A stretch of 64,000 nt of DNA from an uncultured Chromatiales bacterium (GCA_964388175.1 CAYLYS010000004.1:2347-66346); one strand, 5' to 3'. Shown: positions 8,143-24,777, counted from the stretch's first letter. A program made the numbers and translations. Notes: generated by a model not told the origin, from the letters alone.

Positions 8143-8844
8143 TTAAGGACCCGCCAGTTCCCGCTCGACGAGCGCATCGACCGTTTGCAACAGGCTTTCG
8201 ACGTTGGCAGCCATGCTGGCGTCGACGCGATACCGGCCATTGACGATGAAACTCGGCGCGCCGGCGAGCTCATAGCGACGGCTGACGGTCTGCGCATTGC
8301 GCACCTTCGCGCTCACCGCGCTGCTGCGGAAAACGCTGAGGAAGCGCGTCCGGTCCACGCCATGCTCGGCGAAGAAAGCGGCAAGCTCTTCTTCCCTGTC
8401 CAGTGCGCGGCCGTGACGATGCAGCGCATTGTACAAAGGCATGTGTATGCGATCGAGAACGCCCAGCGCCTCGGCGGCAAAGAAAGCGCGTGCGTAATAA
8501 ACCATGTGACTGCCGATCACCGCCGGCAGACGCCGGAAAGTGACGTTCTCTTGCCGGCTGTTTATCCAGCGCTCGAGCGCCGGCTCCACCATGAAGCAGG
8601 TCTGGCAGTCATACCAGAGGAACTCGATGACCTCTACCGTTCCGGATGCGGCTTCCACGCTCTGCGGCTCGGCCAGTTCCTTGTAACTGGTGCCGGGAAT
8701 CAAACCCTGCCCGCCCTGCGCCCAGGCGCCGCCACAACACCACAGCGTGAGCAGCAGCGCAGCGGCACACAGGCGCGCGGACACCCGTCCGGACATCCTC
8801 GACCGTTCCATCACCGCGCTCATCCCGCTCACTACTGGCTGCAT
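8143..8844 (-). CDS. DsbA-family thiol:disulfide oxidoreductase (true start probably an internal Met around 8796)
   Basis: Thioredoxin-fold CxxC active site (WYDCQTCF) in a periplasmic protein of about 210 aa with signal peptide LCAAALLLTLWCCGGAWA. Same strand as and immediately downstream of ccsA and the TPR gene. Confidence 0.7.
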   Translation of the reverse strand: MQPVVSGMSAVMERSRMSGRVSARLCAAALLLTLWCCGGAWAQGGQGLIPGTSYKELAEPQSVEAASGTVEVIEFLWYDCQTCFMVEPALERWINSRQENVTFRRLPAVIGSHMVYYARAFFAAEALGVLDRIHMPLYNALHRHGRALDREEELAAFFAEHGVDRTRFLSVFRSSAVSAKVRNAQTVSRRYELAGAPSFIVNGRYRVDASMAANVESLLQTVDALVERELAGP

Positions 8845-8854
8845 CGCCGGCTCC

Positions 8855-9613
8855 TCATCGGCCTATGGGTATGGTCAGATCCCGCGCCGCCGAAGCACTA
8901 CCTGGAGCAGCGACCGGCGCATCACGATCCGGCAGATTGCGGTCCACCCATTCACGGGTTCTTTCTTCTATCCACTGACGCTCGTGCTCCGGCAAGGGGC
9001 CGCGCGCGATCCGCACATCCCACTCCCACAGCGCCGAGCGCGCCTGACGCACGAAAGGATCGTCCTCTGGCGCGAGATGGATATAAGTGCGCATCGCACC
9101 CAGGGCGCCTTCCAGATCCTCGAGCGCTTCCAGCGCCACCGCCAATCCCCAATAGGCATTGCCCTGAAAAGGCTGCAGTTCGGTGGCGGCGAGGAAGAAA
9201 TCGCGCGCCGTGTCGTAACGCTCGAGTCCGAGCAGCGCATAGCCGAGATTGACATAGGCCTCCGGCAGACGCGGAGAGAGCGCGATGACGCGCTCGAGCG
9301 CGACGATGGCTTCCTCGTACCGGCGCGCGTGCAGCATGACCACGGCCTGCTCGAAACGCTGCTCGATCTCGGCCATGCGCGGATCGACCGGCGCCTGGCG
9401 CGATGTCTCTTGCCGCGCCGGCTGCTGCGGCTGCACCGCGGAAGCCGCCGCGACGACACGTGACGGCGATTGTCCGGGAAGATGCGCATTGAGCAGCAGC
9501 GATTTCAGATCGGGCCGCATCGCCAGCATGAAGATGGTGCACAGGATGATGCCGACGATGCTGAGCGACAGCGCCGATATCGCCGATTCATGCGGGTGCC
9601 GGCGCACGCTCAT
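8855..9613 (-). CDS. Membrane-anchored TPR-repeat protein
   Basis: N-terminal TM helix (ISALSLSIVGIILCTIFMLA), then TPR-like repeats (YEEAIVALERVIALSPRLPEAYVNLGYALLGLERYDTARDFF ... GNAYWGLAVAL). ATGA overlap with the ccsA stop. Confidence 0.6.
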   Translation of the reverse strand: MSVRRHPHESAISALSLSIVGIILCTIFMLAMRPDLKSLLLNAHLPGQSPSRVVAAASAVQPQQPARQETSRQAPVDPRMAEIEQRFEQAVVMLHARRYEEAIVALERVIALSPRLPEAYVNLGYALLGLERYDTARDFFLAATELQPFQGNAYWGLAVALEALEDLEGALGAMRTYIHLAPEDDPFVRQARSALWEWDVRIARGPLPEHERQWIEERTREWVDRNLPDRDAPVAAPGSASAARDLTIPIGR

Positions 9614-10470
9614 ATCACGCCCTTGTGCGCCGCTTCGCTGTAGAACGGCGTACCGAAATAGGTGAAGAAGGCGAAAGCGAACACGCCGATGATGGTCGCC
9701 GCGCCCACGCGCGGCGCAATGTTATAGGTGAAGCGCACGTGGATGGCGAGACCGAGCAGCAGCCAGTTGAGAAACGACGAGGTTTCGAGCGCATCCCAGG
9801 CCCAGTAGCGTCCCCAGGCATCCTGGGCCCAGACCGCGCCGGCGATCAGCATCAGGCTTTCGAAAACCAGCGCCAGCAGCATGAAGCGCCAGGCCACGGT
9901 ATCGAGTACGTCGTCGCCGGGCATGTGGCGGAAGAGATAGCGGAAACCTACCACGTCGCGCAACAGAATGATGCCGGCAAGACCGGTGCCGATGAGGCAA
10001 AAAGCGAGGAAGAATTTGCCGAAAATGACGTGCGCCCATTTCCAGTCGTGATAATAGGTCGGCGGGAAGGGGCTGGCGGCGGGATCGACCGTCACCACCC
10101 AGGCGCTCATGACCAGCAGGATCGGCAACACCACGACGGCTGTCGGCCTGATCAGGGGAATGCGCCAATAGACCACGGTGTATACCAGCCCGAGACTGAA
10201 CAGCTGGCTGATGAGCAGTTCGAACAGATCGACGAAAGGTCCGTGCCCCACCCGCAGCCAGCGCTCCGTCAGGGCGATCGTCAGCAGAATGACCGCCGCG
10301 GCGAGCAGCGTGAGCACATAGGTTTCCGGACGCCGGGAAAGCACGGCAGCGGTGCTGGTACGTCCTCCCGCGCGCAGTACGCCATGGGCGGCCAGCGCCA
10401 TTGCCAGCGCATAGCTGGCTATGCCCGCATACAGCCATGGCAGTTCCGACACCATGGTTTCCGTGTTCAT
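9610..10470 (-). CDS. ccsA: Cytochrome c-type biogenesis protein CcsA/ResC (System II heme-handling, WWD domain)
   Basis: Tryptophan-rich WWD motif WGRYWAWDALE and polytopic membrane topology. Start at MNTETMVSEL (ATG 10470, with GAGAGGA upstream). ATGA overlap with the resB stop. Confidence 0.85.
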   Translation of the reverse strand: MNTETMVSELPWLYAGIASYALAMALAAHGVLRAGGRTSTAAVLSRRPETYVLTLLAAAVILLTIALTERWLRVGHGPFVDLFELLISQLFSLGLVYTVVYWRIPLIRPTAVVVLPILLVMSAWVVTVDPAASPFPPTYYHDWKWAHVIFGKFFLAFCLIGTGLAGIILLRDVVGFRYLFRHMPGDDVLDTVAWRFMLLALVFESLMLIAGAVWAQDAWGRYWAWDALETSSFLNWLLLGLAIHVRFTYNIAPRVGAATIIGVFAFAFFTYFGTPFYSEAAHKGVI

Positions 10471-11498
10471 AGCGTTTTTCCTCTCGCCACATCGGATGCC
10501 GCATGCTTGCGGTCGGCCTCGCGGGCAATGGCATAGGTATGAACGGTGCCGAACTTGCGCCAGAAATGCGCGGCGAGCCCGAATACCGTGATGAACGCGA
10601 CGATGAACAGCCACTGCAAGGTCGGATCATAATACAACTTATAGCCCATCCAGCTCGACAGACGCTCATAACGCAGAAAACCGTCATCGAGCCGGATCGA
10701 TTGCCCCTGCGCCAGCTCCACGCGCTCATCTCCTGCGCGCACCACCAGCATGCCGCGCGCGTTCGCCGGCTCCAGGCGCCAGTCGGTCTGCGGATCCATG
10801 CCCGTTTCCAGTTGCAGCCAGAAGCGGATTTCCTGATCTCCCGGCCCCGGCACCCAGCGGTTCGCCTGGCGATGCTCGAACAGCGGATACGAGGGCATGT
10901 GAATGGCGCCGGTGACGGGCACGCCGGCGTCCGGCGTCCAGGTCAGGATGGCGGCAAAACCTTTGTTGAACGTGGTATAGAAGCGATAGCCGTCGAGCAC
11001 CAGCGGCGTATGGTCGCCGATCACCCGATGCTCCCAACCACCGCGGCCATCGGCAACGGCAATCTGGCTGCGCGTCGCGCCGCGCACCATGCCCGTGGAG
11101 TAATCGATGGCATACGGCCCCTGCAGGAAGTGCACGCGCTCGAAGTTGCCGCGGTGCCAGAGCCCCGTGCGGACATCGATCATGTCATCCGGTGAAAATG
11201 CCTGGCCTTCGGCGAGTTCGACGTTGGCTTCGAGGTAGGTCAGCCGGCCGATCGCAACGAGAACGGCGATGGCCAGCAGGCCGATATGGAACACCAGCAG
11301 GCCGCCGCGGCGGTTGATGCGCGGATCGGTGATGATGGCAGCGCACAGATTGATGGACAGCACGGTCAGCGGCGCAACCAACACCCAGACCGGCGTATCG
11401 ACAGGGTTGTCGTAGTTCAGCGCCGCACCCAAGCCGAGGAACACCATACCGAAAACGGTCAGACGCGTCGACGCGAGTTTGCGCAGAGCGCCACTCAT
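10467..11498 (-). CDS. resB: Cytochrome c biogenesis protein ResB/CcsB (System II)
   Basis: About 343 aa. N-terminal TM helices, a large periplasmic domain and a C-terminal TM, as in ResB. Start MSGALRKL at 11498 overlaps the undecaheme stop. Directly upstream of ccsA. Confidence 0.75.
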   Translation of the reverse strand: MSGALRKLASTRLTVFGMVFLGLGAALNYDNPVDTPVWVLVAPLTVLSINLCAAIITDPRINRRGGLLVFHIGLLAIAVLVAIGRLTYLEANVELAEGQAFSPDDMIDVRTGLWHRGNFERVHFLQGPYAIDYSTGMVRGATRSQIAVADGRGGWEHRVIGDHTPLVLDGYRFYTTFNKGFAAILTWTPDAGVPVTGAIHMPSYPLFEHRQANRWVPGPGDQEIRFWLQLETGMDPQTDWRLEPANARGMLVVRAGDERVELAQGQSIRLDDGFLRYERLSSWMGYKLYYDPTLQWLFIVAFITVFGLAAHFWRKFGTVHTYAIAREADRKHAASDVARGKTL

Positions 11499-14251
11499 GG
11501 CAGGTTCACGCAGGCCTCGTTGCTGTTGTTCATCCAATCGACGCCGACGATGGCGTTGCCGGGCGGGCCGGCCGAACCGCAGTTGACGTCCAGCCACTCG
11601 CCGCTGCGGGCGAAGCTGCGGATCTTCAGCGCGGAACCGAGATAGTAAGGCCCCTGATAATAGCGCCCGGTGCCGGACGACGCGAAACCGCTGTAGCGCA
11701 CCTGGGTACCCGGCGGCAGCTCGGCTTCCAGGCCGACGTCGTTGAGGTTGGCGAGGAAGGTCTTGTTCTTCCAGCCGTGCGGAATGGCGATGTGGCAATA
11801 GGTGCAGCGGAAATTCTGCACCACGAAGGCATGGCCCACATGCAGATTGACGCCGAGGAACTGCAGGCAGCCGCCACCTCCCACCGCGCGGCGGAATCCA
11901 CTCAACACCACGTCCGGATTGGGCGACAGCACGCCACGCGCATAGTTCTTGGGATCATGGCAGCGGAAGCACAGGTGATTGGCCGAATCCTCCTCAGTAG
12001 GACGCAAAGTGTTTGTTCCAGTCTGATCGTTCCAGTTGCCCTTGAGCAGGAAATTCTCGTCCGAACCGTGCGGTCCCCAGGGGAAACCATGCTCCCCACC
12101 CTCTGGCACCACGGTGTCACCCCGCGTACGTGAACCATGGCAGTCCGTGCAATACATGGTCTGCGTACCGACCGCCGTATTGAAGGGCGGACGCCAGGCA
12201 TTGCCGTCCGCGCCGCGCACCGCCGGCGTCCGTCCGGTCGGCTGCAGCGTGGGATGCCATGAGCGATGGTTGTTGGTGACGTAGTCGACCAGATTGCCCT
12301 GCGGATCGAGGCGCGAGAACGTCACCACGCCCTGGCCGCCGGAATCGGTCACCGTCGCCGGCACCGGCGCCTGTGCGCCGATATAGGCGCCGGTCGGCGT
12401 TCCCGGCGTGACCTCGCCCTGATGATCGCGCGGCGACTGGAACTCCATGCCCTGGTTGGTGTAATTGAACAGGGAGTTGGTGCCCGCCGGCGTCAGCCCG
12501 GAGGTATATCCCAGCGGCGGCGGAATATCGTAGGCGTAATTCGAGTGGCACTTCATGCACAGCTGATACTCGCGCGTCAGATACGGCGCGCTGACATCGG
12601 TGCTGCCGCCGACACCGGGATCGCCACGCTTGACCTGGAAATCGACCGGAATGCTGCCGAAGGCGGTATTGGCGTAGACCGGCTCGACGCCCCAGATGCC
12701 GCGCAGCACGCCCGAGGCGAGATTGCTCGGCGGAATGCCCGGCGTATGCTCGTGCGTCGGACCCGGATCGGGCACCGTCGGATCGGCGTTGAACAGACGG
12801 GTGCGCTGCACGCGATGCGGATTGTGGCAGTCGGTGCATTCGGCATGACGATTGGCGAGACCGCCGAGGCCGAGCAGTTCGCGCGACTCGATGAAATCCT
12901 GGCCGCGCTGCATGCCCTGCGTCGCGTCGTCGCCGGTGCCGATGTTGTGTACCTCACCCCCCGACAGTTGATCGGTGTTCGAGATCGGCATGTGCCGCGC
13001 CATGGTGGTGAAGTCAGTCTTGATGTCCGGAACTTCGAAGGCCGGATTGCTATTCGGACTGTTCTGTCCCTGCAGCGTCTGCGCGGTCGGCGGCCCGACG
13101 GCAGGATCGCCATGGCAGGCATAGCACACGTTTTCGATCGAGGGGTTGCCGCCCTGGCGGGCGCCGGTGACCGGATCGAGAGGGCCGTCGGTGCCTTCGC
13201 GCAGGATGCGCCGCGAACCCTGTACCGTGTGCGGATCGTGGCAGTTCAGACAGGCCGCCTGCCACACGCGCGTGCCGCGCGGGAATTCGCGCAGATCGGC
13301 GGCCTCGTTCGTATAACGCTCATCCGCCACCGCCGGATTGGCGTGCGCCGAACCGGCCCAGCCTTCCTTGTCGTGGCAGGCGAGGCAGATGATGTCGCGC
13401 TGCGCATCGAACTGTCCCTGCACCGGCGGCTGCTGCTGGAAGCGGTTCACGCGCAGGAACTTGATGTTCTCGCCCGGTACCTGCGAACGCAGATGGGGAT
13501 CGTGGCAGGTGATGCACTCCACCTTGGGACCGACGCCGTCGGCATCGCGTTCGAGCGGCAGATACTGGCCGCGCGGCAGCGGCTGGCGCGCTTCTCCGTC
13601 GATACGGCGCACGCGCTCATCCAGCCATGGCACCGAATTGGGATCGAACAGCTCGCCGTCACGCGCCGCCTGGGCGCTGTCGTAGGTGAAGGAGATCGGA
13701 TGGTCGTTGCTGAGATCGACGCCGAGATGACGGGTGAAGCCGGTCGTCACGCCGTGTCCCTGCGGTATCGTTCCCGGCGGTGAGCTGTCGCCGGCAGGGA
13801 AGGTGAACGGTACCGTGCGACCATCGCGGTTGGGCTGATCGCGATTGAGCACGTTGACCGCGCCGAGGGCAATAGTGCCGTCGTGGCACGACAGACACAG
13901 CTTGGACCGGCCCGTGGGCTGGCCGAGGTCGGTGGCGTCGATGGAACTCGATGAATACGGAATATAGGCCGTCTGCCGCAACTCGCGGTTCCACAGCGGC
14001 GCGTTCTGCGCGGGCGTCGCGCCGTGCGGCGTGTGGCAGAACACGCAGATCTGCGACTCTTCCGTGGCGAAGGCGCGGCGTTCGGTGCCGTCGGGGAGCG
14101 TGATACCAGCGGGCGGAACCGTGGCGGAGAAATTGTGCCGGGTGTTGGCGATGTCGGAGATCGGGGCCGCCGCCGACGCCCACATCGTCCACAGCGCGGC
14201 ACCGATACAGATGGCGGCGCCGGCGACAAAGGTAGACCAGCGACGCATCAC
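11495..14251 (-). CDS. Undecaheme c-type cytochrome, 918 aa, secreted
   Basis: Signal peptide and 11 CxxCH motifs, several in the form CxxCH(D/N)PH: CVFCH, CLSCH, CITCH, CLACH, CLNCH, CYACH, CTDCH, CMKCH, CTDCH, CFRCH, CTYCH. The N-terminal about 90 aa are homologous to the tetraheme protein at 22706..23545. Confidence 0.85.
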   Translation of the reverse strand: MMRRWSTFVAGAAICIGAALWTMWASAAAPISDIANTRHNFSATVPPAGITLPDGTERRAFATEESQICVFCHTPHGATPAQNAPLWNRELRQTAYIPYSSSSIDATDLGQPTGRSKLCLSCHDGTIALGAVNVLNRDQPNRDGRTVPFTFPAGDSSPPGTIPQGHGVTTGFTRHLGVDLSNDHPISFTYDSAQAARDGELFDPNSVPWLDERVRRIDGEARQPLPRGQYLPLERDADGVGPKVECITCHDPHLRSQVPGENIKFLRVNRFQQQPPVQGQFDAQRDIICLACHDKEGWAGSAHANPAVADERYTNEAADLREFPRGTRVWQAACLNCHDPHTVQGSRRILREGTDGPLDPVTGARQGGNPSIENVCYACHGDPAVGPPTAQTLQGQNSPNSNPAFEVPDIKTDFTTMARHMPISNTDQLSGGEVHNIGTGDDATQGMQRGQDFIESRELLGLGGLANRHAECTDCHNPHRVQRTRLFNADPTVPDPGPTHEHTPGIPPSNLASGVLRGIWGVEPVYANTAFGSIPVDFQVKRGDPGVGGSTDVSAPYLTREYQLCMKCHSNYAYDIPPPLGYTSGLTPAGTNSLFNYTNQGMEFQSPRDHQGEVTPGTPTGAYIGAQAPVPATVTDSGGQGVVTFSRLDPQGNLVDYVTNNHRSWHPTLQPTGRTPAVRGADGNAWRPPFNTAVGTQTMYCTDCHGSRTRGDTVVPEGGEHGFPWGPHGSDENFLLKGNWNDQTGTNTLRPTEEDSANHLCFRCHDPKNYARGVLSPNPDVVLSGFRRAVGGGGCLQFLGVNLHVGHAFVVQNFRCTYCHIAIPHGWKNKTFLANLNDVGLEAELPPGTQVRYSGFASSGTGRYYQGPYYLGSALKIRSFARSGEWLDVNCGSAGPPGNAIVGVDWMNNSNEACVNLP

Positions 14252-15312
14252 GCCTCACCCAGGAGTTGGAATATCATGATACGACCGTTGAAAGCATCAG
14301 CGACGTAGATCCGGTCACGGTGATCCGTCCAGACCCCGGCGGGCAGATAGAACTCTCCGATGCCACTGCCGGAACCTCCGATGGCCAGCAGCAGCTCCCC
14401 TCCATCGTTGAATACTAACAGATGGTCATAATAGGATTCCACCACATAGACATTGCCGTGAGAATCCACCGCAACGCCTTTGGGCCGCGGCATATCGCCG
14501 ACGAAAAGGCCACGCCGGCCGAATTCGCGCACGAATTTTCCGTCGGCATCGAAAATCTGCACTCTCGCATTCAGTGTATCGGTGACGATGAGGCGATCGT
14601 CGACGTAGGTGAGATACGTCGGCGCATTGAATTCACCCGCGCCTTCGCCGTGCGCACCGATGCGTCCGAGCAGCTCGCCGGCATCGCTGAAAATCTTGAC
14701 GTCGTGCGCCTGTGCATCGGCGACGAAGATCCGTCCGCGCGCCGCGTCGCGCACCACGCCGACCGGACGCTCCACTTGGCCGAGACCGATGCTGCCGCGC
14801 GGTTCGCCATCAGCACCGAGGCGCACGATCACCTTCAGATCCGCATCGGCGACCAGGATCTCGCCGTTGGCGCCGGGCGCGATGCCGACCGGCGTCATGA
14901 AACGCACCATCGGCCCGGCCGCCTGCCACAGCAACAGCTTGCCCTGTGCTTCGTCGAAAACGAAAATCGCCCCCCGGCTGACGTCGGTGACGAAGATGCG
15001 TCCGTCCTCGCCGACGAAACCGTTCTGCGGCCGCTGCAGGATCATCGGCGTATGCTTGGAACTGCCCAGCCCGACGACCCAGCTCAGCAAACGGCTGCCG
15101 ATACTGCTCACCTTGGACGAAGAAAAATTCTCCTCACCGGTGAGCTGACCGACCAGCGCATAGCGGGCCGTATCCGGCGCCTGGGGCCAGCGGAAACGCT
15201 CGTCTCCGGCGTATTCATACTGCAGCGTGGCGGGTCCGCTGGCGCATCCGGCCATGAACAGACACAGGAACAGAACGAACGGCAGTCCCGCGCGTGCCTG
15301 ACGCACGCTCAT
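14248..15312 (-). CDS. NHL-repeat (six-bladed beta-propeller) lipoprotein
   Basis: Lipobox FMAGC and six NHL-like repeats (e.g. GRIFVADAQAHDVKIF, DRLIVTDTLNARVQIFD, GNVYVVESYYDHLLVF, DRIYVADAFNGRIMIF). ATGA overlaps on both sides. Confidence 0.8.
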   Translation of the reverse strand: MSVRQARAGLPFVLFLCLFMAGCASGPATLQYEYAGDERFRWPQAPDTARYALVGQLTGEENFSSSKVSSIGSRLLSWVVGLGSSKHTPMILQRPQNGFVGEDGRIFVTDVSRGAIFVFDEAQGKLLLWQAAGPMVRFMTPVGIAPGANGEILVADADLKVIVRLGADGEPRGSIGLGQVERPVGVVRDAARGRIFVADAQAHDVKIFSDAGELLGRIGAHGEGAGEFNAPTYLTYVDDRLIVTDTLNARVQIFDADGKFVREFGRRGLFVGDMPRPKGVAVDSHGNVYVVESYYDHLLVFNDGGELLLAIGGSGSGIGEFYLPAGVWTDHRDRIYVADAFNGRIMIFQLLGEA

Positions 15313-16361
15313 CGCACCGCCGGCTCCGCGTCGACAGGCGCCGCCCCCGGCCAGGACGCCAGTGTCAGAATCTGAATGCGGCGGTTCAGGCTGTCGGCGA
15401 CATAGAGGAATCCTTCGTCCAGCCACAGGTCGGTGATGCGGCGGAAGCGGCCCGGCGCCGAACCGTGCCCACCGATGACGCCGATCAATTGGCTGCCCTG
15501 ATAGACCTTGATGTCGTCGCTGAGATAATCCGCGACGAAGGCGCGCTGCTGATGATCGACGACGATCGCCGTGGGGAAGGTAACGGTATCCTGTTGGAAC
15601 GATTCCCGGTACGCGCCATCCGGGCCCATGACCTGGACCCGCGCCGGACCATAGCGGGTGGCGATGTAATAGCCTGCCGGCCCTTGCGCCAGCGCGGTGA
15701 TGCCGAGAAAACGTCCCGCCCCCGCGCCACGCACGCCGATCGCACCCGACAGCAGTCCGGCAGGGTTGTACACCAGCACGTCATCGTTGAAACCATCGGC
15801 GATGAATACATAACCGGTATCGTCGTTGACCACCACGTTCATCGGACGACCGATGTTGATGCGGTCCTCGATGGTTCTGAGCAGGCGGCCATCGGCATCG
15901 AAATGCAAAACCCGGGCGCCGTCGGTATCGGCGAGGTAGAACGACAGATCGCGGTTGAGATGGATATCGGCGGCGTTGCCATGCAGAACGCCCTTGAGAT
16001 CGAGGACCATGCTCAGGCGGTCGAGGCGCCTGTCATATCTGAACAACTGCTGGTGACCGGCATCGACGATGTAGACCAGATGGCCTTTCGCCGCCACCGC
16101 CACGGGTTGCAGCAGCTGCGTGGAGATCGGCCCCGTCAGCATCTGCCATTCTCCGCTGCCGCTGGGCGCGCTGTCGAGCACCTGCCAAAGCTCGCCCGGC
16201 CCGGTCTGCGCCATGGTTTGCGGCGCCGGAGGCGCCGACGGCGGGGCGAAACGGGCAACATCCTCGCGCGTCAAGGCACAGGCCTGCAGCAGCAGGGCGA
16301 GCGCGGCGAAGATCAGCGCAGCAGGGTAACGTCTTGGGGTACGGAATGACATCTGCCGCAA
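15309..16361 (-). CDS. NHL-repeat beta-propeller lipoprotein (second copy)
   Basis: Lipobox LLQAC and NHL-like repeats (GHLVYIVDAGHQQLFRYD, LSFYLADTDGARVLHFD, GYVFIADGFNDDVLVY, GFLYVADSLNRRIQIL). The start (16361 or 16352) overlaps the 3' end of the upstream triheme gene by about 40-50 nt. Confidence 0.75.
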   Translation of the reverse strand: MRQMSFRTPRRYPAALIFAALALLLQACALTREDVARFAPPSAPPAPQTMAQTGPGELWQVLDSAPSGSGEWQMLTGPISTQLLQPVAVAAKGHLVYIVDAGHQQLFRYDRRLDRLSMVLDLKGVLHGNAADIHLNRDLSFYLADTDGARVLHFDADGRLLRTIEDRINIGRPMNVVVNDDTGYVFIADGFNDDVLVYNPAGLLSGAIGVRGAGAGRFLGITALAQGPAGYYIATRYGPARVQVMGPDGAYRESFQQDTVTFPTAIVVDHQQRAFVADYLSDDIKVYQGSQLIGVIGGHGSAPGRFRRITDLWLDEGFLYVADSLNRRIQILTLASWPGAAPVDAEPAVR

Positions 16362-16924
16362 TTCAGCGTGGGAGAGAATGCGACCTTACCATGACAAACG
16401 CCACAGAAGTCGCCCTGGATGATCGCCGACATGGAAACCGGATTGGCGCCGGCTTGCGGAATGAAGATCGCAGGATGGCAATTGGCGCATGTCAGCCACT
16501 CCGTATGCTGCAGATGGGGAAACCGCACCCACGGCATGGACTGCGTATTCCTGAAAATGATATCGAAATCGACCGGGAACATGTCCATGCTGCCGTCGAG
16601 CGAGGTGCGCGGCTCGATCAGCCTGCGCTCCAATGTCTTCACCCAGTCGATCTGCCCGGAACCATCGCGCGGGAAACCGGCCATGGCCTCATACGGCTGC
16701 TGCAGAACGGCAACCGCTTCGCCGCTGGGATCATGGATGCCGTCCTCCGCGACCGGAGCGATATCGCCGCGCATCTGGAAATGGGCGCCGCGCGACCACA
16801 ATGGCGCATCCTGCTCCTGTTGCGGGAATACGCTGCCCGCGGCACCCGCTGCCGCACTGACCGTCAAGGCCGCACATAGCGCCAGCAGACGCCACGCGCT
16901 CAGCGGATGCCCTCTTTTCATCAT
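16313..16924 (-). CDS. Triheme c-type cytochrome (c7/c3-like), periplasmic, copy A
   Basis: Signal peptide, then FPHLQHTEWLTCANCH, CGVCHGK and CGRCHS: three CxxCH motifs with distal His ligands in c7-like spacing. Paralogous to 18614..19264. Confidence 0.8.
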   Translation of the reverse strand: MMKRGHPLSAWRLLALCAALTVSAAAGAAGSVFPQQEQDAPLWSRGAHFQMRGDIAPVAEDGIHDPSGEAVAVLQQPYEAMAGFPRDGSGQIDWVKTLERRLIEPRTSLDGSMDMFPVDFDIIFRNTQSMPWVRFPHLQHTEWLTCANCHPAIFIPQAGANPVSMSAIIQGDFCGVCHGKVAFSPTLNCGRCHSVPQDVTLLR

Positions 16925-18507
16925 CTCACGCCCATCGCCTGCAAAGCGCGCTGAATATTGCTGGTGGCGCCCTGCAGCATGAGTATGGCTTCCTGGTAAT
17001 TACCGCGCGCGGCCTCGGGTTCGGACAAGGCCTTGACCTCTCTCGCCCGGTCGATGAACGGCATGATCAGCTTTCTGGTCTGCTCATTGGGTTCGCGCTG
17101 CTGAATGGCGAGCGGCACCAATCCTTCATAACCGAGGTAGCGCGACAGCTCGTATTCATATTCATCGCGTGGCGTCTGAAACACCAGTTCATGCACGATG
17201 GTCTGTTCGGCCAGCATCTCGGTCAGCGCCGTAGTCAGCGTATTCTGGGCGCCGCCCAGCATGCTGATCGCCTCGTTGTACTTGCCGTCATCGGCAAGCG
17301 ACCTGGCGTTGCTCATGACGCTCTCGATCTGCTTCAGATCGACGGCGCGGACGTTGCTTCGCCCCTTGTTCTTGACCATCTGCTCGTAGTTGCGGCGGTA
17401 CGAGGCCTCGAACCCCTGCACACCCTCATACATCTCCAGGAAACGGGCGCGCTCGGCCTCGCCGCGCGATTCCTGAGGCACCAGCAGGGAAGACTCGCTC
17501 ATCAGCCGCATGGCATCTTCGACCAGAGGCAGCGCATTCTGCTGTTCGCCGGCGGACAGCGCGCCGCGGGCTTGCTCGAAACGCTGCTGCGCATCGCGGT
17601 AGAGAGCGAGCGCGGTCTCGTTGCCGCTGTCGCGGATGCGCGCGGCAGCCGGCGACTGATTGATGAACATGTCGGCGAACTGAATCTTCTGCTGGATCTG
17701 CTGCGCCGATACGTTGCGCTGCTGCGCGCTCTGTGCACCCGCATCCGCGGTTCCCGGCATCTTGCCGCCGCGAGCGGCCTGCAGCTCGGCGATGGACAGA
17801 TTCTCCTGCCCCTCATTGACGATGTAGATCGGGCCACCCATGTTCCGGTGGTTTCGGCACTGGTAATAGAGCAGATCCGGCGCCTGCGCACTCGGCGTGA
17901 ACGTCACCACACCTTCATAGATGAACTGGCCGCTGACGCCATCGACATAGGTCGCGGCACCCCAGCCGACCTCGCTGCCGGAAAGGTAGAAATCGTGCTG
18001 TATGCCGGCATTGACGCTGAAACGATAGGTCTTGCCTCTCACCATCACCAGCGGCTTGCCCTGCACGCCATTGACTACGAATCCCATGCGATGGCCGACG
18101 CCATAGTAGGGATGCGAAGTATCCTTGGTCTCGGTGACGACATTGAACAGGAAAGGCGAGCTCGGCGGCGCCTCGCGCGCCGGCACCGCGGCAGGGACAG
18201 GAACGGATGAAGGCGCCGACGCCGACTCGGCTGGAACCGGAGCTGGTGCCGCTTCCACCGTCGCCGCGGAGGGTTCGGGTTGCAGCGGCACGACCTCGGC
18301 GACAGGCGTCTCCTCGGCGGGCGCTGGCTGGAGAAGCGCCGACGATGGGATGACCACTGTCACCTCCTGGGGCGAAGCAGCAACGGCAGACGGCGCCGAC
18401 GCTGCGGTCGGAGCGGAAGCAGGCGCATCGCTTCCGGTCGTGGCGCAGGCGGACAGCGTCAGCGCGATGATTGCCGGGAACAGCAGGCTAGGGAAACGGG
18501 ATCGCAT
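16921..18507 (-). CDS. Lipoprotein with Pro/Ala-rich linker, cupredoxin-like (putative type-1 copper) domain and long alpha-helical C-terminal domain
   Basis: Lipobox LTLSAC with a strong SD (AGGGAGGA) before ATG 18507. About 110 aa P/A/S-rich linker. Domain with candidate copper ligands (His in IQHDFY; C-x2-H-x2-M in YYQCRNHRNMGG). About 300 aa Q/A/R/E-rich helical tail. Confidence 0.55.
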   Translation of the reverse strand: MRSRFPSLLFPAIIALTLSACATTGSDAPASAPTAASAPSAVAASPQEVTVVIPSSALLQPAPAEETPVAEVVPLQPEPSAATVEAAPAPVPAESASAPSSVPVPAAVPAREAPPSSPFLFNVVTETKDTSHPYYGVGHRMGFVVNGVQGKPLVMVRGKTYRFSVNAGIQHDFYLSGSEVGWGAATYVDGVSGQFIYEGVVTFTPSAQAPDLLYYQCRNHRNMGGPIYIVNEGQENLSIAELQAARGGKMPGTADAGAQSAQQRNVSAQQIQQKIQFADMFINQSPAAARIRDSGNETALALYRDAQQRFEQARGALSAGEQQNALPLVEDAMRLMSESSLLVPQESRGEAERARFLEMYEGVQGFEASYRRNYEQMVKNKGRSNVRAVDLKQIESVMSNARSLADDGKYNEAISMLGGAQNTLTTALTEMLAEQTIVHELVFQTPRDEYEYELSRYLGYEGLVPLAIQQREPNEQTRKLIMPFIDRAREVKALSEPEAARGNYQEAILMLQGATSNIQRALQAMGVR

Positions 18508-18560
18508 TCCTCCCTCATATACTCTGGCATACATTCGGGCACACACTCAGACAGACATCC

Positions 18561-18613: not shown

Positions 18614-19264
18614 TTATCTCCAAGGATTCTTGACGGTCGCCTCGCTCAACGGTGGCTTCCAGTCCGCGGGCTTGGGCTTGGAATGACACTTCCCGCAGGT
18701 CGTCGTGGTCACCGGGAAGGACACCTTGCCATGGCACACGCCGCATTTCTCACCCAGCAGAATAGCAGACATGTTGATCTGATTGGATCCCGCCTGCGGC
18801 ACGAAGATCGCCGGATGGCAGTTCGAGCAGAACAGCCATTCCGTATGCTGCCGATGCGGGAACACCACATCCGGCATCGATGCCTTCACCGGTCTGACGA
18901 TATCGAGATCCATGACGAAGGGCTCTTCCGATGAATCGATGCGATCCCAGCGCGGGCGCAGCAGACCTTGATCCAGCGCCTGCACCCAGTCGATACGGTT
19001 GCCGAACACGGTACGCGGCAATCCCTGATAGGCTTCTTCCGGCGGCTGCAGCGAGAAGGTCGCCTCGTTGCTGGTGTCGTGGATACCGTCTTCCCACGGC
19101 GGCGGATTGGCGCTGTCACGCTTCTTCAGGTTGACGTTGAACTCATTGGCGGAAGAAACGCGCGATTCCTGCGCCGATACCGACTGTATCTGCCAAGGCA
19201 GCGCAAAAACCACCAGTGCAGCGGACAGACCGAGTGCGATCGAGACTTTCTTGATGATATTCAT
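18614..19264 (-). CDS. Triheme c-type cytochrome (c7/c3-like), copy B
   Basis: Signal peptide, then FPHRQHTEWLFCSNCH, CGVCHGK and CGKCHSK. Clear paralog of copy A (shared DGIHD, IDWVQAL and HTEWL blocks). Confidence 0.8.
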   Translation of the reverse strand: MNIIKKVSIALGLSAALVVFALPWQIQSVSAQESRVSSANEFNVNLKKRDSANPPPWEDGIHDTSNEATFSLQPPEEAYQGLPRTVFGNRIDWVQALDQGLLRPRWDRIDSSEEPFVMDLDIVRPVKASMPDVVFPHRQHTEWLFCSNCHPAIFVPQAGSNQINMSAILLGEKCGVCHGKVSFPVTTTTCGKCHSKPKPADWKPPLSEATVKNPWR

Positions 19265-19287: not shown

Positions 19288-19737
19288 TTATTGCTGCGAC
19301 TGTGCGCCGGCTGCGGGGTCCAGCGGCTTGAATGCCGGGGCCACGAGACGCTGCACGGTGCTGCCGTGGAAGTGAGTGGGAGTGCCGGGAATACCGGAAT
19401 GGCACATGGCACAGTTTTCGACCGACCAGGCCACCTCGCCGTTGTGGCAGGCGCCGCAGAACTGGCCGTCCACGATCTTGGCCATCGTGATCTGATTACC
19501 GCCCGCCTTGAACTGGAAGCCCAGGTCGGCGTGGCAAACCTTGCAGCGGAAACGCACGCGATGGAACCAGTGCGGGAACACCACTGGACGCATGGCCGCG
19601 GCATCGGAATAGTTATTGATGACGACGTCGCCGTATTCCGCCTGTGCTGGCTGCGGCGCCGCCCATATCCACAAACCGATCAGGAGCCCCGCAAACAGCG
19701 AGATGCGCGCAGGCATCCGAGAGATCATCGATGGCAT
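19288..19737 (-). CDS. Triheme c-type cytochrome, copy C (divergent, 149 aa)
   Basis: Signal peptide, then FPHWFHRVRFRCKVCH, CGACHNG and CAMCHSG. Same heme spacing logic but low identity to A and B. Confidence 0.8.
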   Translation of the reverse strand: MPSMISRMPARISLFAGLLIGLWIWAAPQPAQAEYGDVVINNYSDAAAMRPVVFPHWFHRVRFRCKVCHADLGFQFKAGGNQITMAKIVDGQFCGACHNGEVAWSVENCAMCHSGIPGTPTHFHGSTVQRLVAPAFKPLDPAAGAQSQQ

Positions 19738-19814: not shown

Positions 19815-21578
19815 TCAGAAACGACGGTTTATCTGAAAATAGATAATATTGTAATTGTCGTCATTCTGATCGCCGGAGAAACTGATGTAGCGCCAGCTCA
19901 GACTGGTATCCACCAGCCCGATCACGTAGTCCAGTCGGTTCTCCCACTCTGCGCGGTCTATCCCCTCGTCCGTGGCCGCGCGCGCAATACGCAAATCCGA
20001 GTTGAACCGAAGCTGGGCTATGTCGAACAAGCCCATGTGCCGGTAGGTCACCTGGCCGGTTGCGGTTACTGTATCATTATCCCGCAGCCCGTTGAAGTCC
20101 CGGCTCACCATTTGCACCGTCAGATTTCCGCTCAACATGCTGTACAGACTGAGCGTCTGATTGCGCATGAACTGCAGATTGGCGAATTGCTGATTGTCGT
20201 CCTGATCGCCGAATCCGCGGGAATCCGACAATGTCAGGTGGATCATCGTCGTCCCGCTCTCACCGTGCCGGTCCCATGACAGGCTGCCGGTGTGATCCAG
20301 GCGCTGGGTATTGATATCATCGGCCGTATCCGCCGTTTGATAAACCGTGCTAACCGACTGGCTCAGACTCAGGCGGAAAGTCCCCCGTCCATCCGTCATC
20401 CACATGCGCTGCGCATCGTGCCCGAGGCGGACCAGCCCGGTCAGCAAGTCCTCGCTGCCGGTATTCTGGTTCTGGGCCGATGCCTGAGCATGCCAGTTAT
20501 AGGTGAAATGGGTGAAAAGCGGGCGCAGATCGGATTGATAGAGCGCGCCGAGGCGCTGCCGGGAGGTCATATCCACACCGGCGGTATTGGTGTCCGTGAC
20601 ATCGACATTGGCGTCGAAACGCAGATTCTTCGTGTACTGATAAAAAGCGCCGGCGGTGGCGCTGACGCTGGCCTGATCGATCTCCCTGCCAGCGTTACTC
20701 GCCGCCATGTCGAAGAGGCGCACGCCCGCGCTCACCGACAGCGGTCTGTCGACCGGCCGCCAGAACAGAAAGCTCGACACCTGGGTATACGTTATATCCG
20801 CCCTGGCCAGATTGGTGCTGCCGGGCGCCTGTGCCGACCGGGTATCGGAATCGTAGTAGCTGACCATGGTATCGAAGCGCAGCGCCCGATCCGGATGGTA
20901 GAAGTGCTCGACGTTGAGCAGCTTGATATCGTTGTCCTGATCGATGGTCGCCAGCTCTATTTGCTGGTAGCTGGTCCTGGCGCTCAGGGTATGCTGCGGG
21001 CGGCGCATATTGTATTCCAGCCCGATCAGCTGATCCTTGTAGCTCTCGATACCGCGCGACTCCCAGGTGCCATGATCGAAGCGCAACTGAAAACGATCGC
21101 CGACTTCGGTCAGATAGCTCTGGCGCAGCGACAGCCGCCGCGTCTGAAAGTCATAACTGCTGAGCCCGGACACGGGATTGGGCAGCGTGACCGAATCGAC
21201 GCGGCTGTCGCTCATGCGGTAGGACAGCGAAAAAGGGGTACGGCTTTGCGGCAGGACGTTGAGATCGAGATCGAGACCGAGAATGGTCGTGCGCGATGAG
21301 GCGCCCGCATCATAGCTGCTGGCATCCTGGGTCGCGCGCAGCCCCGCGGACAGATTGGCGAACCACGGCTCCCACAGATAGGCCTGCGCGTTCAGCGCGG
21401 CACGCAACTGGTTGCTGTGCGCATCGCTGTTGTCGCTGCCCGTGATCGAACGGAAGGTATAGCCGACACTGCCGGAAACGTCGCTCACTCCGACCGCCGC
21501 CGCCGCAGCCTGCGCACTCCACAGCGCCGCGGCCACCGCGCACAGCATCGAACCGAGTTGACGCTTCCCCTCTGGCAT
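19815..21578 (-). CDS. Putative outer-membrane beta-barrel protein (587 aa, no heme-binding motif)
   Basis: Signal peptide (MLCAVAAALWSAQAAAAAV). Sequence rich in alternating hydrophobic/polar stretches and Y/W/F. C-terminal aromatic residue (...YFQINRRF). Only one Cys in the whole protein, so no CxxCH. Confidence 0.55.
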   Translation of the reverse strand: MPEGKRQLGSMLCAVAAALWSAQAAAAAVGVSDVSGSVGYTFRSITGSDNSDAHSNQLRAALNAQAYLWEPWFANLSAGLRATQDASSYDAGASSRTTILGLDLDLNVLPQSRTPFSLSYRMSDSRVDSVTLPNPVSGLSSYDFQTRRLSLRQSYLTEVGDRFQLRFDHGTWESRGIESYKDQLIGLEYNMRRPQHTLSARTSYQQIELATIDQDNDIKLLNVEHFYHPDRALRFDTMVSYYDSDTRSAQAPGSTNLARADITYTQVSSFLFWRPVDRPLSVSAGVRLFDMAASNAGREIDQASVSATAGAFYQYTKNLRFDANVDVTDTNTAGVDMTSRQRLGALYQSDLRPLFTHFTYNWHAQASAQNQNTGSEDLLTGLVRLGHDAQRMWMTDGRGTFRLSLSQSVSTVYQTADTADDINTQRLDHTGSLSWDRHGESGTTMIHLTLSDSRGFGDQDDNQQFANLQFMRNQTLSLYSMLSGNLTVQMVSRDFNGLRDNDTVTATGQVTYRHMGLFDIAQLRFNSDLRIARAATDEGIDRAEWENRLDYVIGLVDTSLSWRYISFSGDQNDDNYNIIYFQINRRF

Positions 21579-21626: not shown

Positions 21627-22622
21627 TTATTCCGATGGCAACGAATCGGCCGCGCCCACGCCGATCAATTCCTCGTTGACCGTGATCGCCGTCGTCTCAT
21701 GCAGGCGCGCCAGTGCATCCTGCCATGCGCGCTCGCTCAGCTCCCGGTGCAACAGATCACCGGCGCGCTCCGCCACCAGATCGAATGCGTTCAGCTGCGG
21801 AACGACGCGCTCGTCCAGCCGGAAAAGCGCATAGCCCTGCAGCATCTGCAGCGGCGCCGAGAACGTGCCGGGCTGCATGGCATCCAGCACCTCCTGCGCC
21901 TCGCGCGCCAGCATGCCCTTGTGGACATAGCCGAGATCACCGCCCTGCGCCGCCGATCCATCCGCCGAATGCAGCCGCGCCAGATCGGAAAATGACGCTC
22001 CGTCTTTCAGTTTCGCATACAGGCGCTGCGCCTCTTCCTGCGCCGCCTCCCATACAGCGCCACCGGACCAGGGTTCGACCCTGAGCAGTATCATCGACAC
22101 ACGCAGGCGTTCCGGCGTCGTGAATTTGTCCGGCTGCGCCCGGTAATACGCCAGCACGGCCTCCCGATCCGGCGCCGGCACCTGCTCGATCCGCTGCCGC
22201 AGCTGCGCGATGACGCTGTCCCCCATCAACTGCGCCCGCAGGGCTTCGCGCGCGGCAACCGGGTCGGCGCTGGCGGCGATGCGCTCGGTCAGCATGGTCA
22301 TCCGGGCATCCATCCACCGCTCATCCGGCGCGATGCCCTGGCGTTCCGCCTCCTGCAGCAACAGCAATCTGTCGACCATCGCCGCGGCGACTTCACGCCG
22401 GAAGGCAGCGATATCGGCGGCGGGCACCTGACCATGATAGAAGCGCTGTCGGACGCCGGCATGGAAATTCGCCTCGAATTCATCGATCGGGATCACCGTT
22501 CCGCCGACCACGGCAAAGACATCGGCACGATCCGGCGTTTCCTCCTGCTTGTCCTCCACACCGGCATGGCCCGCTGTCGTCAGCAGCAGAAACAAGGCCA
22601 TCGTGATCGAGAAAATCCGCAT
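21627..22622 (-). CDS. Periplasmic peptidyl-prolyl cis-trans isomerase (SurA/PpiD-like parvulin)
   Basis: Signal peptide MRIFSITMALFLLLTTAGHA, a SurA-like N-terminal chaperone region and a parvulin signature (SDGSAAQGGDLGYVHKGMLAREAQEVL ... FSAPLQMLQGYALFRL). The start could also be the Met at 22634. Confidence 0.7.
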   Translation of the reverse strand: MRIFSITMALFLLLTTAGHAGVEDKQEETPDRADVFAVVGGTVIPIDEFEANFHAGVRQRFYHGQVPAADIAAFRREVAAAMVDRLLLLQEAERQGIAPDERWMDARMTMLTERIAASADPVAAREALRAQLMGDSVIAQLRQRIEQVPAPDREAVLAYYRAQPDKFTTPERLRVSMILLRVEPWSGGAVWEAAQEEAQRLYAKLKDGASFSDLARLHSADGSAAQGGDLGYVHKGMLAREAQEVLDAMQPGTFSAPLQMLQGYALFRLDERVVPQLNAFDLVAERAGDLLHRELSERAWQDALARLHETTAITVNEELIGVGAADSLPSE

Positions 22623-22705
22623 CCGAGAATACATGCCAGTCCGGAGCCATGGGGCGGCGGCATTCTGCCCGCAGCATGCCCTGCCGCCCAGGTAGCGCTC
22701 GCCCG

Positions 22706-23545
22706 TCATTTATTGTGGCAAGTCAGACACACTGAACTGCCCACGGGGTCTACGCGCAAAAACAGAGGGTTGTAATCGACATGGGGATCATGGCAGGAAG
22801 CGCATTCCACATAGGGCTGCGGTTCGCCGACGAACACCCCGCGCGTTGCGACCCGGGTGTACAGCTTCATGTCGGACTTTTCGAAATCCGACGATCCCCC
22901 GACGGTACGGGTGTTGACCCACCAGAATCTTTCGCTGCCGACGATCTTGGTTTCCGCCTGATGGAAATCCGGATCGCGCCCCGGCCCGTGCGGATTGGCC
23001 TGGGAATAGCCGCCGCCGGCATACTGCACCGAAACCGGATGATCGTCGCGCAGATCCTTGCCGAGATTGGTGATGACCGTCACCGGGCCGATCCGCCCGC
23101 CCACCGGCGCGGCCTGGCCGCTCCAGACTCCCGCCCTGAAGGCCCAGTTCTCCGCGCCCGAGCCCGGCTCGTTGATCAGTGCGTCCATGGCCTGCGTCCC
23201 GTCGTGACAGGACAGGCAGGCGATCGATACCGAGCCGATCGGCTCGATGGCCGCATCGAGACTGGTGGAACCCAGCTGGTCATAGGTGGTGAATCCGGCA
23301 CTGCCGGGATCGATGTAGCGATTCCACAGAGGAACGGCGACCGAGGCATCGGCGCCGTGCGGCGTATGGCAGAAAACGCAGATCTCCGACGTGCCGCTGA
23401 AATTGCTCGCGGCATTGACGCCGGTACTGCCAAGATTATGCTTGGTATTGAAGATACCGGCGTTGACGGCGTGCGCCGACAGCAGTACGGCCCCGAGCAT
23501 GAGAACCAGCCAGGAACGTCTGCAAGTATGGTGACTTGCTCGCAT
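22706..23545 (-). CDS. Tetraheme c-type cytochrome, secreted
   Basis: Signal peptide and CVFCHTPHG, CLSCHDG, CASCHDPH, CLTCHNK. The N-terminal module NTKHN...CVFCHTPHG...PLWNR...CLSCHDG matches the N-terminus of the undecaheme. Confidence 0.8.
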   Translation of the reverse strand: MRASHHTCRRSWLVLMLGAVLLSAHAVNAGIFNTKHNLGSTGVNAASNFSGTSEICVFCHTPHGADASVAVPLWNRYIDPGSAGFTTYDQLGSTSLDAAIEPIGSVSIACLSCHDGTQAMDALINEPGSGAENWAFRAGVWSGQAAPVGGRIGPVTVITNLGKDLRDDHPVSVQYAGGGYSQANPHGPGRDPDFHQAETKIVGSERFWWVNTRTVGGSSDFEKSDMKLYTRVATRGVFVGEPQPYVECASCHDPHVDYNPLFLRVDPVGSSVCLTCHNK

Positions 23546-23670: not shown

Positions 23671-24777
23671 TCACAGCCCCAGGTTGAAACGATGGATGAT
23701 ACCGGCGGAAACGGTGCTGACATCCTTGCCCGACGCTGCCGGACGAATCACGCTGCCGGCATCGTCATGATCGGGATGCAGGGCATAGCCGGACTGATCA
23801 TCATTCAGCAGGGTCGCGCCGATCAGATAGAACTCCGTGCGCGGCGACATCGCATAGGAAAACCCGAGCGCCACCATCTGCGCGCCGCTGTCGGGACGCT
23901 GATCCAGTTCGCCCAACTGACCATAGGCCAGCTTCCAGGTGAAATTGCCTGCCACATGCGACAGGCTGCCGTACCAGGCATCGCGCTCGCCATCACCGCC
24001 GGCAAGGCGGCTGCCGTTGTCGGCCTGCTCCCAGATCAGCGCGGCGCGCGTGCCCTGGCCGAAATCCCAGCCGAACACCGCTTTCGTCGCCGAGGCATCA
24101 CGCTGATCGACGGCTTCGACCTGGCCCAGCTTTTCATAACCGATACCGAGATACAGCGGGCCGCTGACGAAGGCCAGCGTGGCGCTGTAACCGTTGAGAT
24201 CGGAAGCCTCGTCCGTACGCGGCAGTTCGTCGCGCTCACGGTCGGCGATGTAGGCGAGCGCGAAACGGATGCGCCTCTGCTCCGGCGTGGCATAGTACAG
24301 AATGTTCCGCGCCCGCTCATTGAACAGCGACTGTCCGTCGACGGCGCCGACGATGGCGCTGTGATCGGCACGGGTATTGCGGAAGATATCCAACTCGTCG
24401 CTCAGCGCGCGATAAGGCGTGACGTGACGCCCGGCCAGCAGCACGCCGAGACTGCCCTCGAGCCCGAGGAAACTGTCACGCCCCTCTTCACTCCAGGCGC
24501 CATCGTCGAGATCGACGCCCTGCTCGAACTGCCAGATGACGGAAAGCCGGTCGCGCAGACGCTCGCTGCCACGCAAACCGATGAACGACTTGTTGCTGCT
24601 CACCAGCAAAGCGTATTTTTTGACCGGCTCCTCTCCCGCAAGCGCATCGCCGTTGCCGATGACATCCACCGAGACGTGCGCCGTGCCATAGAGCTCGATC
24701 GCACTCTGTGCCGCTCCCGGCAGCGTGAGCGCCGCGATTGCCAGACACCATATCGGCGCTTTGGAATTCATATTCAC
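23671..24777 (-). CDS. General porin (Gram-negative trimeric porin family)
   Basis: Signal peptide LAIAALTLPGAAQSA, 16-strand-porin-like amphipathic pattern and C-terminal ...HRFNLGL. Confidence 0.7.
   Translation of the reverse strand: MNMNSKAPIWCLAIAALTLPGAAQSAIELYGTAHVSVDVIGNGDALAGEEPVKKYALLVSSNKSFIGLRGSERLRDRLSVIWQFEQGVDLDDGAWSEEGRDSFLGLEGSLGVLLAGRHVTPYRALSDELDIFRNTRADHSAIVGAVDGQSLFNERARNILYYATPEQRRIRFALAYIADRERDELPRTDEASDLNGYSATLAFVSGPLYLGIGYEKLGQVEAVDQRDASATKAVFGWDFGQGTRAALIWEQADNGSRLAGGDGERDAWYGSLSHVAGNFTWKLAYGQLGELDQRPDSGAQMVALGFSYAMSPRTEFYLIGATLLNDDQSGYALHPDHDDAGSVIRPAASGKDVSTVSAGIIHRFNLGL

Follow-up and report, generated by a model that had tools for sequence, protein, structure and literature searches.

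The closest described relatives of the locus considered here are two gene clusters for multiheme cytochromes. The 'undecaheme electron transfer' (uet) cluster was described in 'Ca. Tenderia electrophaga' and other Tenderiales and also occurs in six Gallionella genomes (bioRxiv 10.1101/2022.05.06.490989; PMC10734462), while the occA-S cluster of 'Ca. Dechloromonas occultata' encodes the undecaheme cytochrome OccP of 922 amino acids (aa) together with '6-NHL repeat proteins' (bioRxiv 10.1101/695007). NHL genes are further reported in the outer-membrane cytochrome cluster of Desulfovibrio ferrophilus IS5 (DFE_0451 and DFE_0463; PMC9769857) and in a multiheme cluster of Geoalkalibacter ferrihydriticus (PMC12016550), and the Tenderiales paper cites the NHL gene Gmet_0556 in a multiheme cluster of Geobacter metallireducens (bioRxiv 10.1101/2022.05.06.490989; PMC10734462). 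In this study, a uet cluster was analyzed in a 64,000-nt stretch of DNA, hereafter the window, from an uncultured Chromatiales bacterium (GCA_964388175.1 CAYLYS010000004.1:2347-66346). Two NHL genes, NHL2 and NHL1, lie there between a triheme and an undecaheme cytochrome gene, and the start codon of NHL2 is located inside a heme-binding motif of the triheme gene, a position conserved among the relatives.

In the window cluster, as in the published one, uetA-J are arranged in this order ahead of the ccs genes and nrfG, a pair of NHL genes separates uetG, the last of three triheme genes, from the undecaheme gene uetJ, and each gene has the same domain content. Because its synteny and domain content match the published uet list, NHL2 and NHL1 are assigned as UetH and UetI, respectively (ALP54629.1 and ALP54908.1 in 'Ca. 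T. electrophaga'), and the window as holding a complete uetABCDEFGHIJ-ccsBA-nrfG cluster. It is another orthologous example of the known uet system, whose NHL pair between cytochrome genes has already been published. The initial annotation of this DNA had stated that cytochrome operons are normally free of NHL propellers; this does not hold, as the same pair is published in both uet and occ and NHL genes are present in the other multiheme clusters mentioned above. The scaffold or surface-binding roles that it had suggested match hypotheses already in the literature. The closest sequences to the window proteins were metagenome proteins with 89% identity, and those of the nearest metagenome-assembled genomes (MAGs; Chromatiales, Gammaproteobacteria) showed 67-72%. 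The genes and junctions at the center of this study are as follows:

16313-16924, minus strand: uetG ('triheme A'), c7-type triheme cytochrome, 203 aa, type-I signal peptide
15309-16352, minus strand: uetH (NHL2), 347 aa, lipoprotein signal, six-bladed NHL propeller
14248-15312, minus strand: uetI (NHL1), 354 aa, lipoprotein signal, six-bladed NHL propeller
11495-14251, minus strand: uetJ, undecaheme cytochrome c, 918 aa, eleven CxxCH motifs, type-I signal, without lipobox
16313-16352, minus strand: dual-coding overlap of uetG and uetH, 40 nt
15309-15312, minus strand: uetH/uetI junction, ATGA stop/start overlap
14248-14251, minus strand: uetI/uetJ junction, GTGATG, read as GTGA (GTG 14251, 4 nt) or TGATG (ATG 14248, 1 nt)

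The NHL2 frame offers only two start codons ahead of its lipobox Cys (codon 25, 16280-16278), TTG 16361 and ATG 16352; the next one, TTG 16274, lies past this Cys. The coordinates of both NHL genes and the two possible NHL2 starts inside triheme A, as initially annotated, were thereby confirmed on the minus strand. Translated from ATG 16352, UetH has the N-terminus MSFRTPRRYPAALIFAALALLLQAC and a signal that reads MSFRTPRRYPAALIFAALALLLQA directly before Cys25, and the gene overlaps uetG by 40 nt; from TTG 16361, the overlap would be 49 nt. TTG 16361 was rejected as the uetH start, because most relatives have CTG at this position, while the ATG is conserved. UetG carries three CxxCH motifs (Pfam Cytochrome_C7 1 at 3.3e-12; NCBIfam nanowire_3heme at 6.8e-18), and its last one, within N-C-G-R-C-H, is followed by a 10-aa tail, SVPQDVTLLR, and the TGA stop at 16315-16313. 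The uetH ATG (16352-16350) consists of the last base of the Arg codon AGA and the first two bases of the Cys codon TGT, this Cys being the second one of the third (last) CxxCH of UetG.

To follow this arrangement in relatives, species-representative genomes were scanned with a UetH profile, which yielded 80 related loci, mostly from Gammaproteobacteria/Chromatiales MAGs and a few from Burkholderiales, including the isolate Noviherbaspirillum denitrificans TSA40. An ATG one base before the corresponding Cys codon was found in the window and in 62 of the 80 loci, and in these 63 sequences the overlap was 40 nt in all but one, where it was 43 nt. Among the other loci, five showed a 17-nt overlap of uetG and uetH and about eight showed none. 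The Arg codon preceding the Cys was CGA in 46 and AGA in 17 of the sequences, ending in A in 63/63, while A-ending codons account for 11.4% of the Arg codons in the same uetH genes. An Arg codon with a varying first base and a fixed third base is the signature of selection on the uetH ATG. About 100 database homologues of UetH start with M-[S/P]-[F/L]-R-x-x-R…LAAL…[G/A]-C, and both M1 and C25 were invariant in a 40-sequence UetH alignment. The first UetH residues are a shifted reading of A-TG[T/C]-CA[T/C]-T, that is, of the Cys-His of CxxCH.

The third-position entropy of uetH was 0.62 inside the overlap vs. 1.68 downstream, and that of uetG was 1.38 inside vs. 1.44 elsewhere, so about equally free. 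By this measure, the protein sequence of UetG dictates the DNA within the overlap, and therefore the tolerant n-region of the UetH signal is superimposed on the conserved C-terminus of UetG. A start codon is thus held within a heme-binding motif across deep divergence, and such a conserved start inside a heme motif appears undescribed in the searchable literature. UetE ends its series of heme motifs with C-G-K-C-H (18680-18700, minus strand), a site with no long open reading frame (ORF) listed. An out-of-frame ATG arises at such a site whenever the preceding codon ends in A; the uetG case is special in that the ATG is conserved against the codon bias.

How uetH is translated was considered from the same sequences. 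Independent initiation driven by a Shine-Dalgarno sequence was rejected as the general mechanism, since the core motif was present at the uetH start in 15 of the 63 sequences and absent from 48. A -1 frameshift that would fuse UetG and UetH was also rejected, as it would turn the signal peptide internal; in addition, when the overlaps of the window and 11 relatives were inspected by eye, without a dedicated scan, no X_XXY_YYZ slippery heptamer was seen. We infer that the translation of uetH depends on that of uetG: ribosomes that have just read uetG probably translate uetH, either through unfolding of the mRNA structure or by back-scanning after termination. The frequent lack of the core Shine-Dalgarno motif is the one indirect hint of such dependence. 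A similar geometry is known from phage fr, whose coat and lysis genes are coupled at a spacing of -38 nt, with the downstream start likewise about 40 nt ahead of the upstream stop (PMC12548453). The present case differs from phage fr in that the uetH start is also fixed inside an invariant heme-binding Cys codon and that coupling is predicted from the genes. Such coupling would tie the output of UetH to that of UetG, and likewise the output of UetI to that of UetJ.

The remaining junctions are short. The ATGA that had initially been assigned to both NHL junctions is present between NHL2 and NHL1 (15312-15309), while the junction between NHL1 and the undecaheme gene reads GTGATG in the window, although ATGA is found there in most relatives and a -4 nt overlap in 42 of 68 related loci. 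The uetH/uetI spacing ranged from -8 to +21 nt in most related loci. At the ORF level, 4-nt overlaps were also found for uetA/uetB (22706-22709), uetF/uetG (16921-16924, ATGATG), uetJ/ccsB (11495-11498, ATGA), ccsB/ccsA (10467-10470) and ccsA/nrfG (9610-9613), in addition to uetH/uetI and uetI/uetJ; the 40-nt uetG/uetH overlap is the sole long one in the operon. Overlapping reading frames run unbroken from uetF to nrfG, and a consensus scan for internal promoters and terminators gave counts at chance level, with nothing convincing between uetG and uetJ. Subunits of heteromeric complexes have been reported to be overrepresented 4.5- to 8-fold among gene pairs spaced by -8 to +10 nt (PMC10666635).

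Both NHL proteins carry lipoprotein signals. The lipobox of UetH is LLQA-C with Cys25 (16280-16278), and that of UetI is FMAG-C with Cys23 (15246-15244), each followed by Ala at position +2; UetI begins with MSVRQARAGLPFVLFLCLFMAGC, and its signal reads MSVRQARAGLPFVLFLCLFMAG directly before Cys23. As expected of signal peptidase II substrates, with a positively charged n-region, a hydrophobic core, a lipobox of the form [LVI..][ASTQ..][GAS]C and its Cys within residues 15-35, UetH, UetI and UetF of the window passed a PROSITE-PS51257-style rule, while UetA, UetC, UetD, UetE, UetG and UetJ failed, and the Cys is invariant in UetI (C23) as it is in UetH, so that both lipoboxes named in the initial annotation were borne out. 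Among the UetI homologues, 103 of 120 had a lipobox and 89 had Ala at +2, while the UetH homologues had Ala (60) or Ser (29) at this position; Asp at +2 was found in none of the UetH and UetI homologues tabulated. The +2 sorting rule of the Lol system is established for E. coli/Enterobacteriaceae and is extrapolated here to the present host. Under this rule, the +2 residue points to sorting of both UetH and UetI to the outer membrane; the two are thus assigned to the cell envelope, probably as lipoproteins of the outer membrane.

The two proteins are paralogous six-bladed propellers, as had been proposed initially. UetH matched the Pfam families NHL (PF01436; 26.6 bits; cut-off 20) and DUF5128 (PF17170; 23.2 bits; cut-off 22.9), and UetI matched them with 67.4 and 89.3 bits, respectively; the two aligned to each other with an hhalign probability of 100% (E 5.6e-40) and a BLASTP identity of 33%. 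AlphaFold2 models built from a 40-sequence (UetH) and a 42-sequence (UetI) alignment had a mean predicted local distance difference test score (pLDDT) of 89.9 and 90.8, respectively, and in both, an N-terminal strand closes the propeller of six four-stranded blades. In UetH, a linker of about 50 aa separates the signal from the propeller, and in UetI a conserved N-terminal 'WPxxPxxPRY...GQLTGE' segment precedes it. The best Foldseek matches of UetH were the NHL domains of Thin, TRIM2 and TRIM71, and the top matches of the fold searches were canonical NHL domains of the protein- or RNA-binding type. Of these relatives, TRIM2, TRIM71/LIN-41, Brat and Thin are eukaryotic RNA- or protein-binding modules and the NHL domain of PknD is a kinase sensor domain, whereas UetH and UetI are stand-alone bacterial lipoproteins with N-terminal extensions of their own. 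UetI is the more conserved, with a mean column identity of 61% (about 70 invariant positions) vs. 46% for UetH, and the more widespread, with 4,056 vs. 209 matches among the scored candidates. No invariant His, Met or second Cys was found in either alignment, so a redox cofactor in either propeller is unlikely.

The gene order B-C-D-E-F-G-H-I-J-ccsB-ccsA-nrfG was kept in 80/80 related loci, within contig limits, when mapped by tblastn with twelve window proteins. Because both are present at the same place in every related cluster examined, uetH and uetI are core parts of the cluster and not insertions, and the recent acquisition considered in the initial annotation is ruled out. Four Burkholderiales loci (L074, L076, L077 and L080) had the same backbone with an extra UetD-like triheme gene between uetG and uetH, uetF apparently duplicated, as two shorter genes, and no uetG/uetH overlap. 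The Burkholderiales UetH has an apparently ordinary signal peptide (...AAAQ-TA) instead of a lipobox, and the UetI lipobox is retained. A second uetJ-like undecaheme gene was located about 2.5-5 kb downstream of uetJ in six loci (L052, L057, L063, L065, L070 and L071), with 47-50% identity and no ccsB/ccsA matches between the two copies in the tblastn map.

Further, a UetI-type NHL gene was repeatedly found next to a particular type of cytochrome gene. UetJ is homologous to UetA over its first ~295 residues (30% identity, tblastn 2e-21), and the two share an N-terminal 'NT[KR]HN' motif; UetJ (N-terminus MRRWSTFVAGAAICIGAALWTMWASAAA; Pfam Paired_CXXCH_1 and Mtrc-MtrF_II-IV_dom matches) may consist of a UetA-like module with seven further hemes added. 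Immediately ahead of uetA, 11 loci carry one more UetI-like gene for an NHL lipoprotein, the third in these clusters, whose product shares the 'WPxPP' motif at its N-terminus; the window has no such gene and a porin gene in its place. The third gene was placed as follows:

First ~2 kb of each of L046, L049, L052, L053, L056, L063, L071, L073, L074, L076 and L080: third NHL gene

A distant NHL homologue (about 30% identity) likewise directly precedes a multiheme gene in two smaller, non-uet clusters, L082 (1-7190) and L084 (1-5098). In detail, both have triheme or tetraheme genes, then a protein of about 680 aa that has no Pfam match and is possibly a barrel, then the NHL lipoprotein and the multiheme cytochrome, whose N-terminus carries a UetA/J-like 'NT.HN' motif. 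In L082, from a Burkholderiaceae MAG, the multiheme cytochrome has 11 hemes in 588 aa, and its gene precedes those of a sensor kinase and a sigma-54 response regulator; in L084, the multiheme gene is cut by the contig end, with six CxxCH motifs in the part present, and overlaps the NHL gene by 8 nt. The order of a UetI-type NHL gene followed by a UetA/J-type cytochrome gene, as read from these loci, recurs in four cluster layouts, and of the data at hand it speaks most strongly for a specific partnership. This recurrent pair appears undescribed in the searchable literature.

Taken together, UetH and UetI are invariant components of the uet (= occ) system and probably serve as lipid-anchored docking or assembly subunits of the porin-cytochrome conduit, a reading that is somewhat more likely than not. 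From the outer membrane, the two would set the placement of cytochromes without a lipid anchor with respect to the UetC barrel. The proposed partner of UetI is the non-lipidated UetJ, which it would dock or anchor, and also UetA in clusters with a third NHL copy; UetH, whose synthesis would follow that of UetG, may connect the trihemes of the periplasm with the barrel complex. A more far-reaching combination of the results is speculative: UetI-type NHL lipoproteins might be dedicated anchors or export chaperones of UetA/UetJ-type cytochromes, with the 'WPxPP…' NHL proteins serving non-lipidated outer multiheme cytochromes that carry an N-terminal NT[KRL]HN motif, and the uetH start might be a selected device that sets the UetG:UetH stoichiometry. 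If true, these NHL proteins would be a previously unrecognized class of accessory subunits of porin-cytochrome conduits, standing in for the lipid anchor that MtrC of Shewanella carries itself.

Several observations weigh against the docking role. Contact of UetH and UetI with the cytochromes or the barrel is a prediction from the genes. Because 4-nt overlaps link genes throughout the operon, they are not specific to the NHL genes and single out neither G:H nor I:J as specific pairs. To judge from the Burkholderiales loci, the system can do without lipid anchoring of UetH and without the uetG/uetH overlap. Many UetH lipoboxes are atypical, with Q, N, E or Y at -2/-3, and the strict rule was passed by 39 of 63 sequences; in addition, the +2 sorting rule is enterobacterial and only assumed here, and lipoproteins can also be surface-exposed. 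Lastly, PSORTb put the Tenderia UetH in the cytoplasm in the Tenderiales study (bioRxiv 10.1101/2022.05.06.490989; PMC10734462). Some database UetH homologues are annotated from after the Cys (P0005 and P0006, 322 aa), and the published cytoplasmic call may stem from a gene model that starts past it; the lipoprotein reassignment, which corrects this call, appears undescribed in the searchable literature.

Explanations other than docking were weighed against the same data. It is rather unlikely that UetH and/or UetI are surface-exposed and bind mineral or electrode, or mediate adhesion, instead of docking on the periplasmic side. NHL proteins have been suggested in the literature to bind mineral nanocrystals and, in the case of Gmet_0556, to serve adhesion, the designed NHL-derived 'Pizza' propellers, which bind metals and polyoxometalates, are among the fold matches of UetH, and a surface lipoprotein partner would make sense for UetJ and UetA, which are predicted to be extracellular yet have no lipid anchor. 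However, neither a sequence signature of surface export nor a conserved His- or Cys-rich metal-binding patch was found in the two proteins, the lipobox is lost from the Burkholderiales UetH, and the very high conservation of UetI is more readily explained by one constant protein partner than by mineral surfaces of varied nature. Also distinctly unlikely is that the propellers are enzymes, i.e., lactonase- or lyase-type hydrolases, or helpers of cytochrome folding or heme handling that act alongside UetB and CcsBA. The operon does encode maturation functions (uetB, ccsB, ccsA and a DsbA-like gene), and weak Pfam SGL and Arylesterase matches were obtained, but those of UetH are below the curated cut-offs, the SGL match of UetI (30 bits vs. 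26.3) contains no single stretch that passes alone, and without an invariant His a PAL-like Zn(His)3 site is absent.

The reading that NHL2 is mis-started or decaying, with its true start past the Cys, no signal peptide, and an overlap that is an artefact of ORF calling, is highly improbable, and the comparison of homologues comes close to refuting it. In its favor, long overlaps on one strand are frequently errors of annotation, the database entries P0005 and P0006 do begin past the Cys, and the Tenderia UetH was predicted to be cytoplasmic. Yet the ~100 homologues retain the ATG, a positively charged n-region, the hydrophobic core and the Cys, the A on which the ATG depends is found in every one of the 63 sequences through both CGA and AGA, against codon bias, and the frame is intact, with a propeller pLDDT of ~90. 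The downstream NHL2 start without a signal peptide that the initial annotation had envisaged is therefore not the conserved one; the conserved ATG is that which gives the signal.

The other genes of the cluster in the window are listed below:

22706-23545, minus strand: uetA, tetraheme cytochrome
21627-22709, minus strand: uetB, PpiC/SurA-type peptidyl-prolyl isomerase
19815-21578, minus strand: uetC, 587 aa, putative outer-membrane beta-barrel, assigned by position and orthology to the C gene in related loci
19288-19737, minus strand: uetD, c7-type triheme cytochrome
18614-19264, minus strand: uetE, c7-type triheme cytochrome
16921-18546, minus strand: uetF, 541-aa lipoprotein, LTLSA-C, Cys22
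10467-11498, minus strand: ccsB/resB, cytochrome c biogenesis
9610-10470, minus strand: ccsA, cytochrome c biogenesis
8855-9613, minus strand: nrfG-like, tetratricopeptide repeat (TPR) protein

The uetC product has a signal peptide and no Pfam match. UetF contains a long linker rich in Ala, Pro and Ser, and had only sub-threshold YfdX and At5g54830-like matches in Pfam and none in NCBIfam. Outside the cluster, two general porin-family genes lie just upstream of uetA (23671-24777 and 24942-25964, minus strand; Porin_4, OmpL-like or Porin_O_P), a DsbA-like thioredoxin gene lies directly downstream of nrfG (8143-8844, minus strand), and an ORF with five CxxCH motifs, a candidate pentaheme cytochrome, is located about 22 kb from the uet cluster (46001-46669, minus strand).

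The uet/occ system is a leading candidate for electron exchange with solids by uncultured electroautotrophs, some iron oxidizers and a Mn(III) reducer. Its accessory proteins are uncharacterized, and the pair of a UetI-type NHL protein and a UetA/J-type cytochrome offers a concrete interaction to probe. As the cluster is present in the cultured isolate N. denitrificans TSA40 (L077), genetics may be possible.

Compared with the clusters of Desulfovibrio, Geoalkalibacter and Geobacter, the window shares the presence of NHL genes among multiheme genes implicated in extracellular electron transfer; those clusters, likened here by description, are different ones and belong to other phyla, and roles in adhesion or complex stabilization are only proposed for their NHL proteins. 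The Tenderiales paper calls UetH cytoplasmic and seven-bladed, whereas the window UetH has a lipoprotein signal and was modeled with six blades, and it mentions neither the 40-nt uetG/uetH overlap nor the lipidation of UetH and UetI. It also places batD/B/A downstream of nrfG, where the window has the DsbA-like gene, and names UetF a cupredoxin protein, while the window UetF has only sub-threshold Pfam matches. UetC is defined in the uet system as a large (~28-strand) barrel, and its window counterpart is the 587-aa protein with a signal peptide. Like occ, the window cluster combines an undecaheme cytochrome, about 920 aa long in both (918 aa in the window), with NHL propeller genes and many cytochrome genes, but it is of the gammaproteobacterial (uet) type, while the occ-type variant is carried by the Burkholderiales loci.

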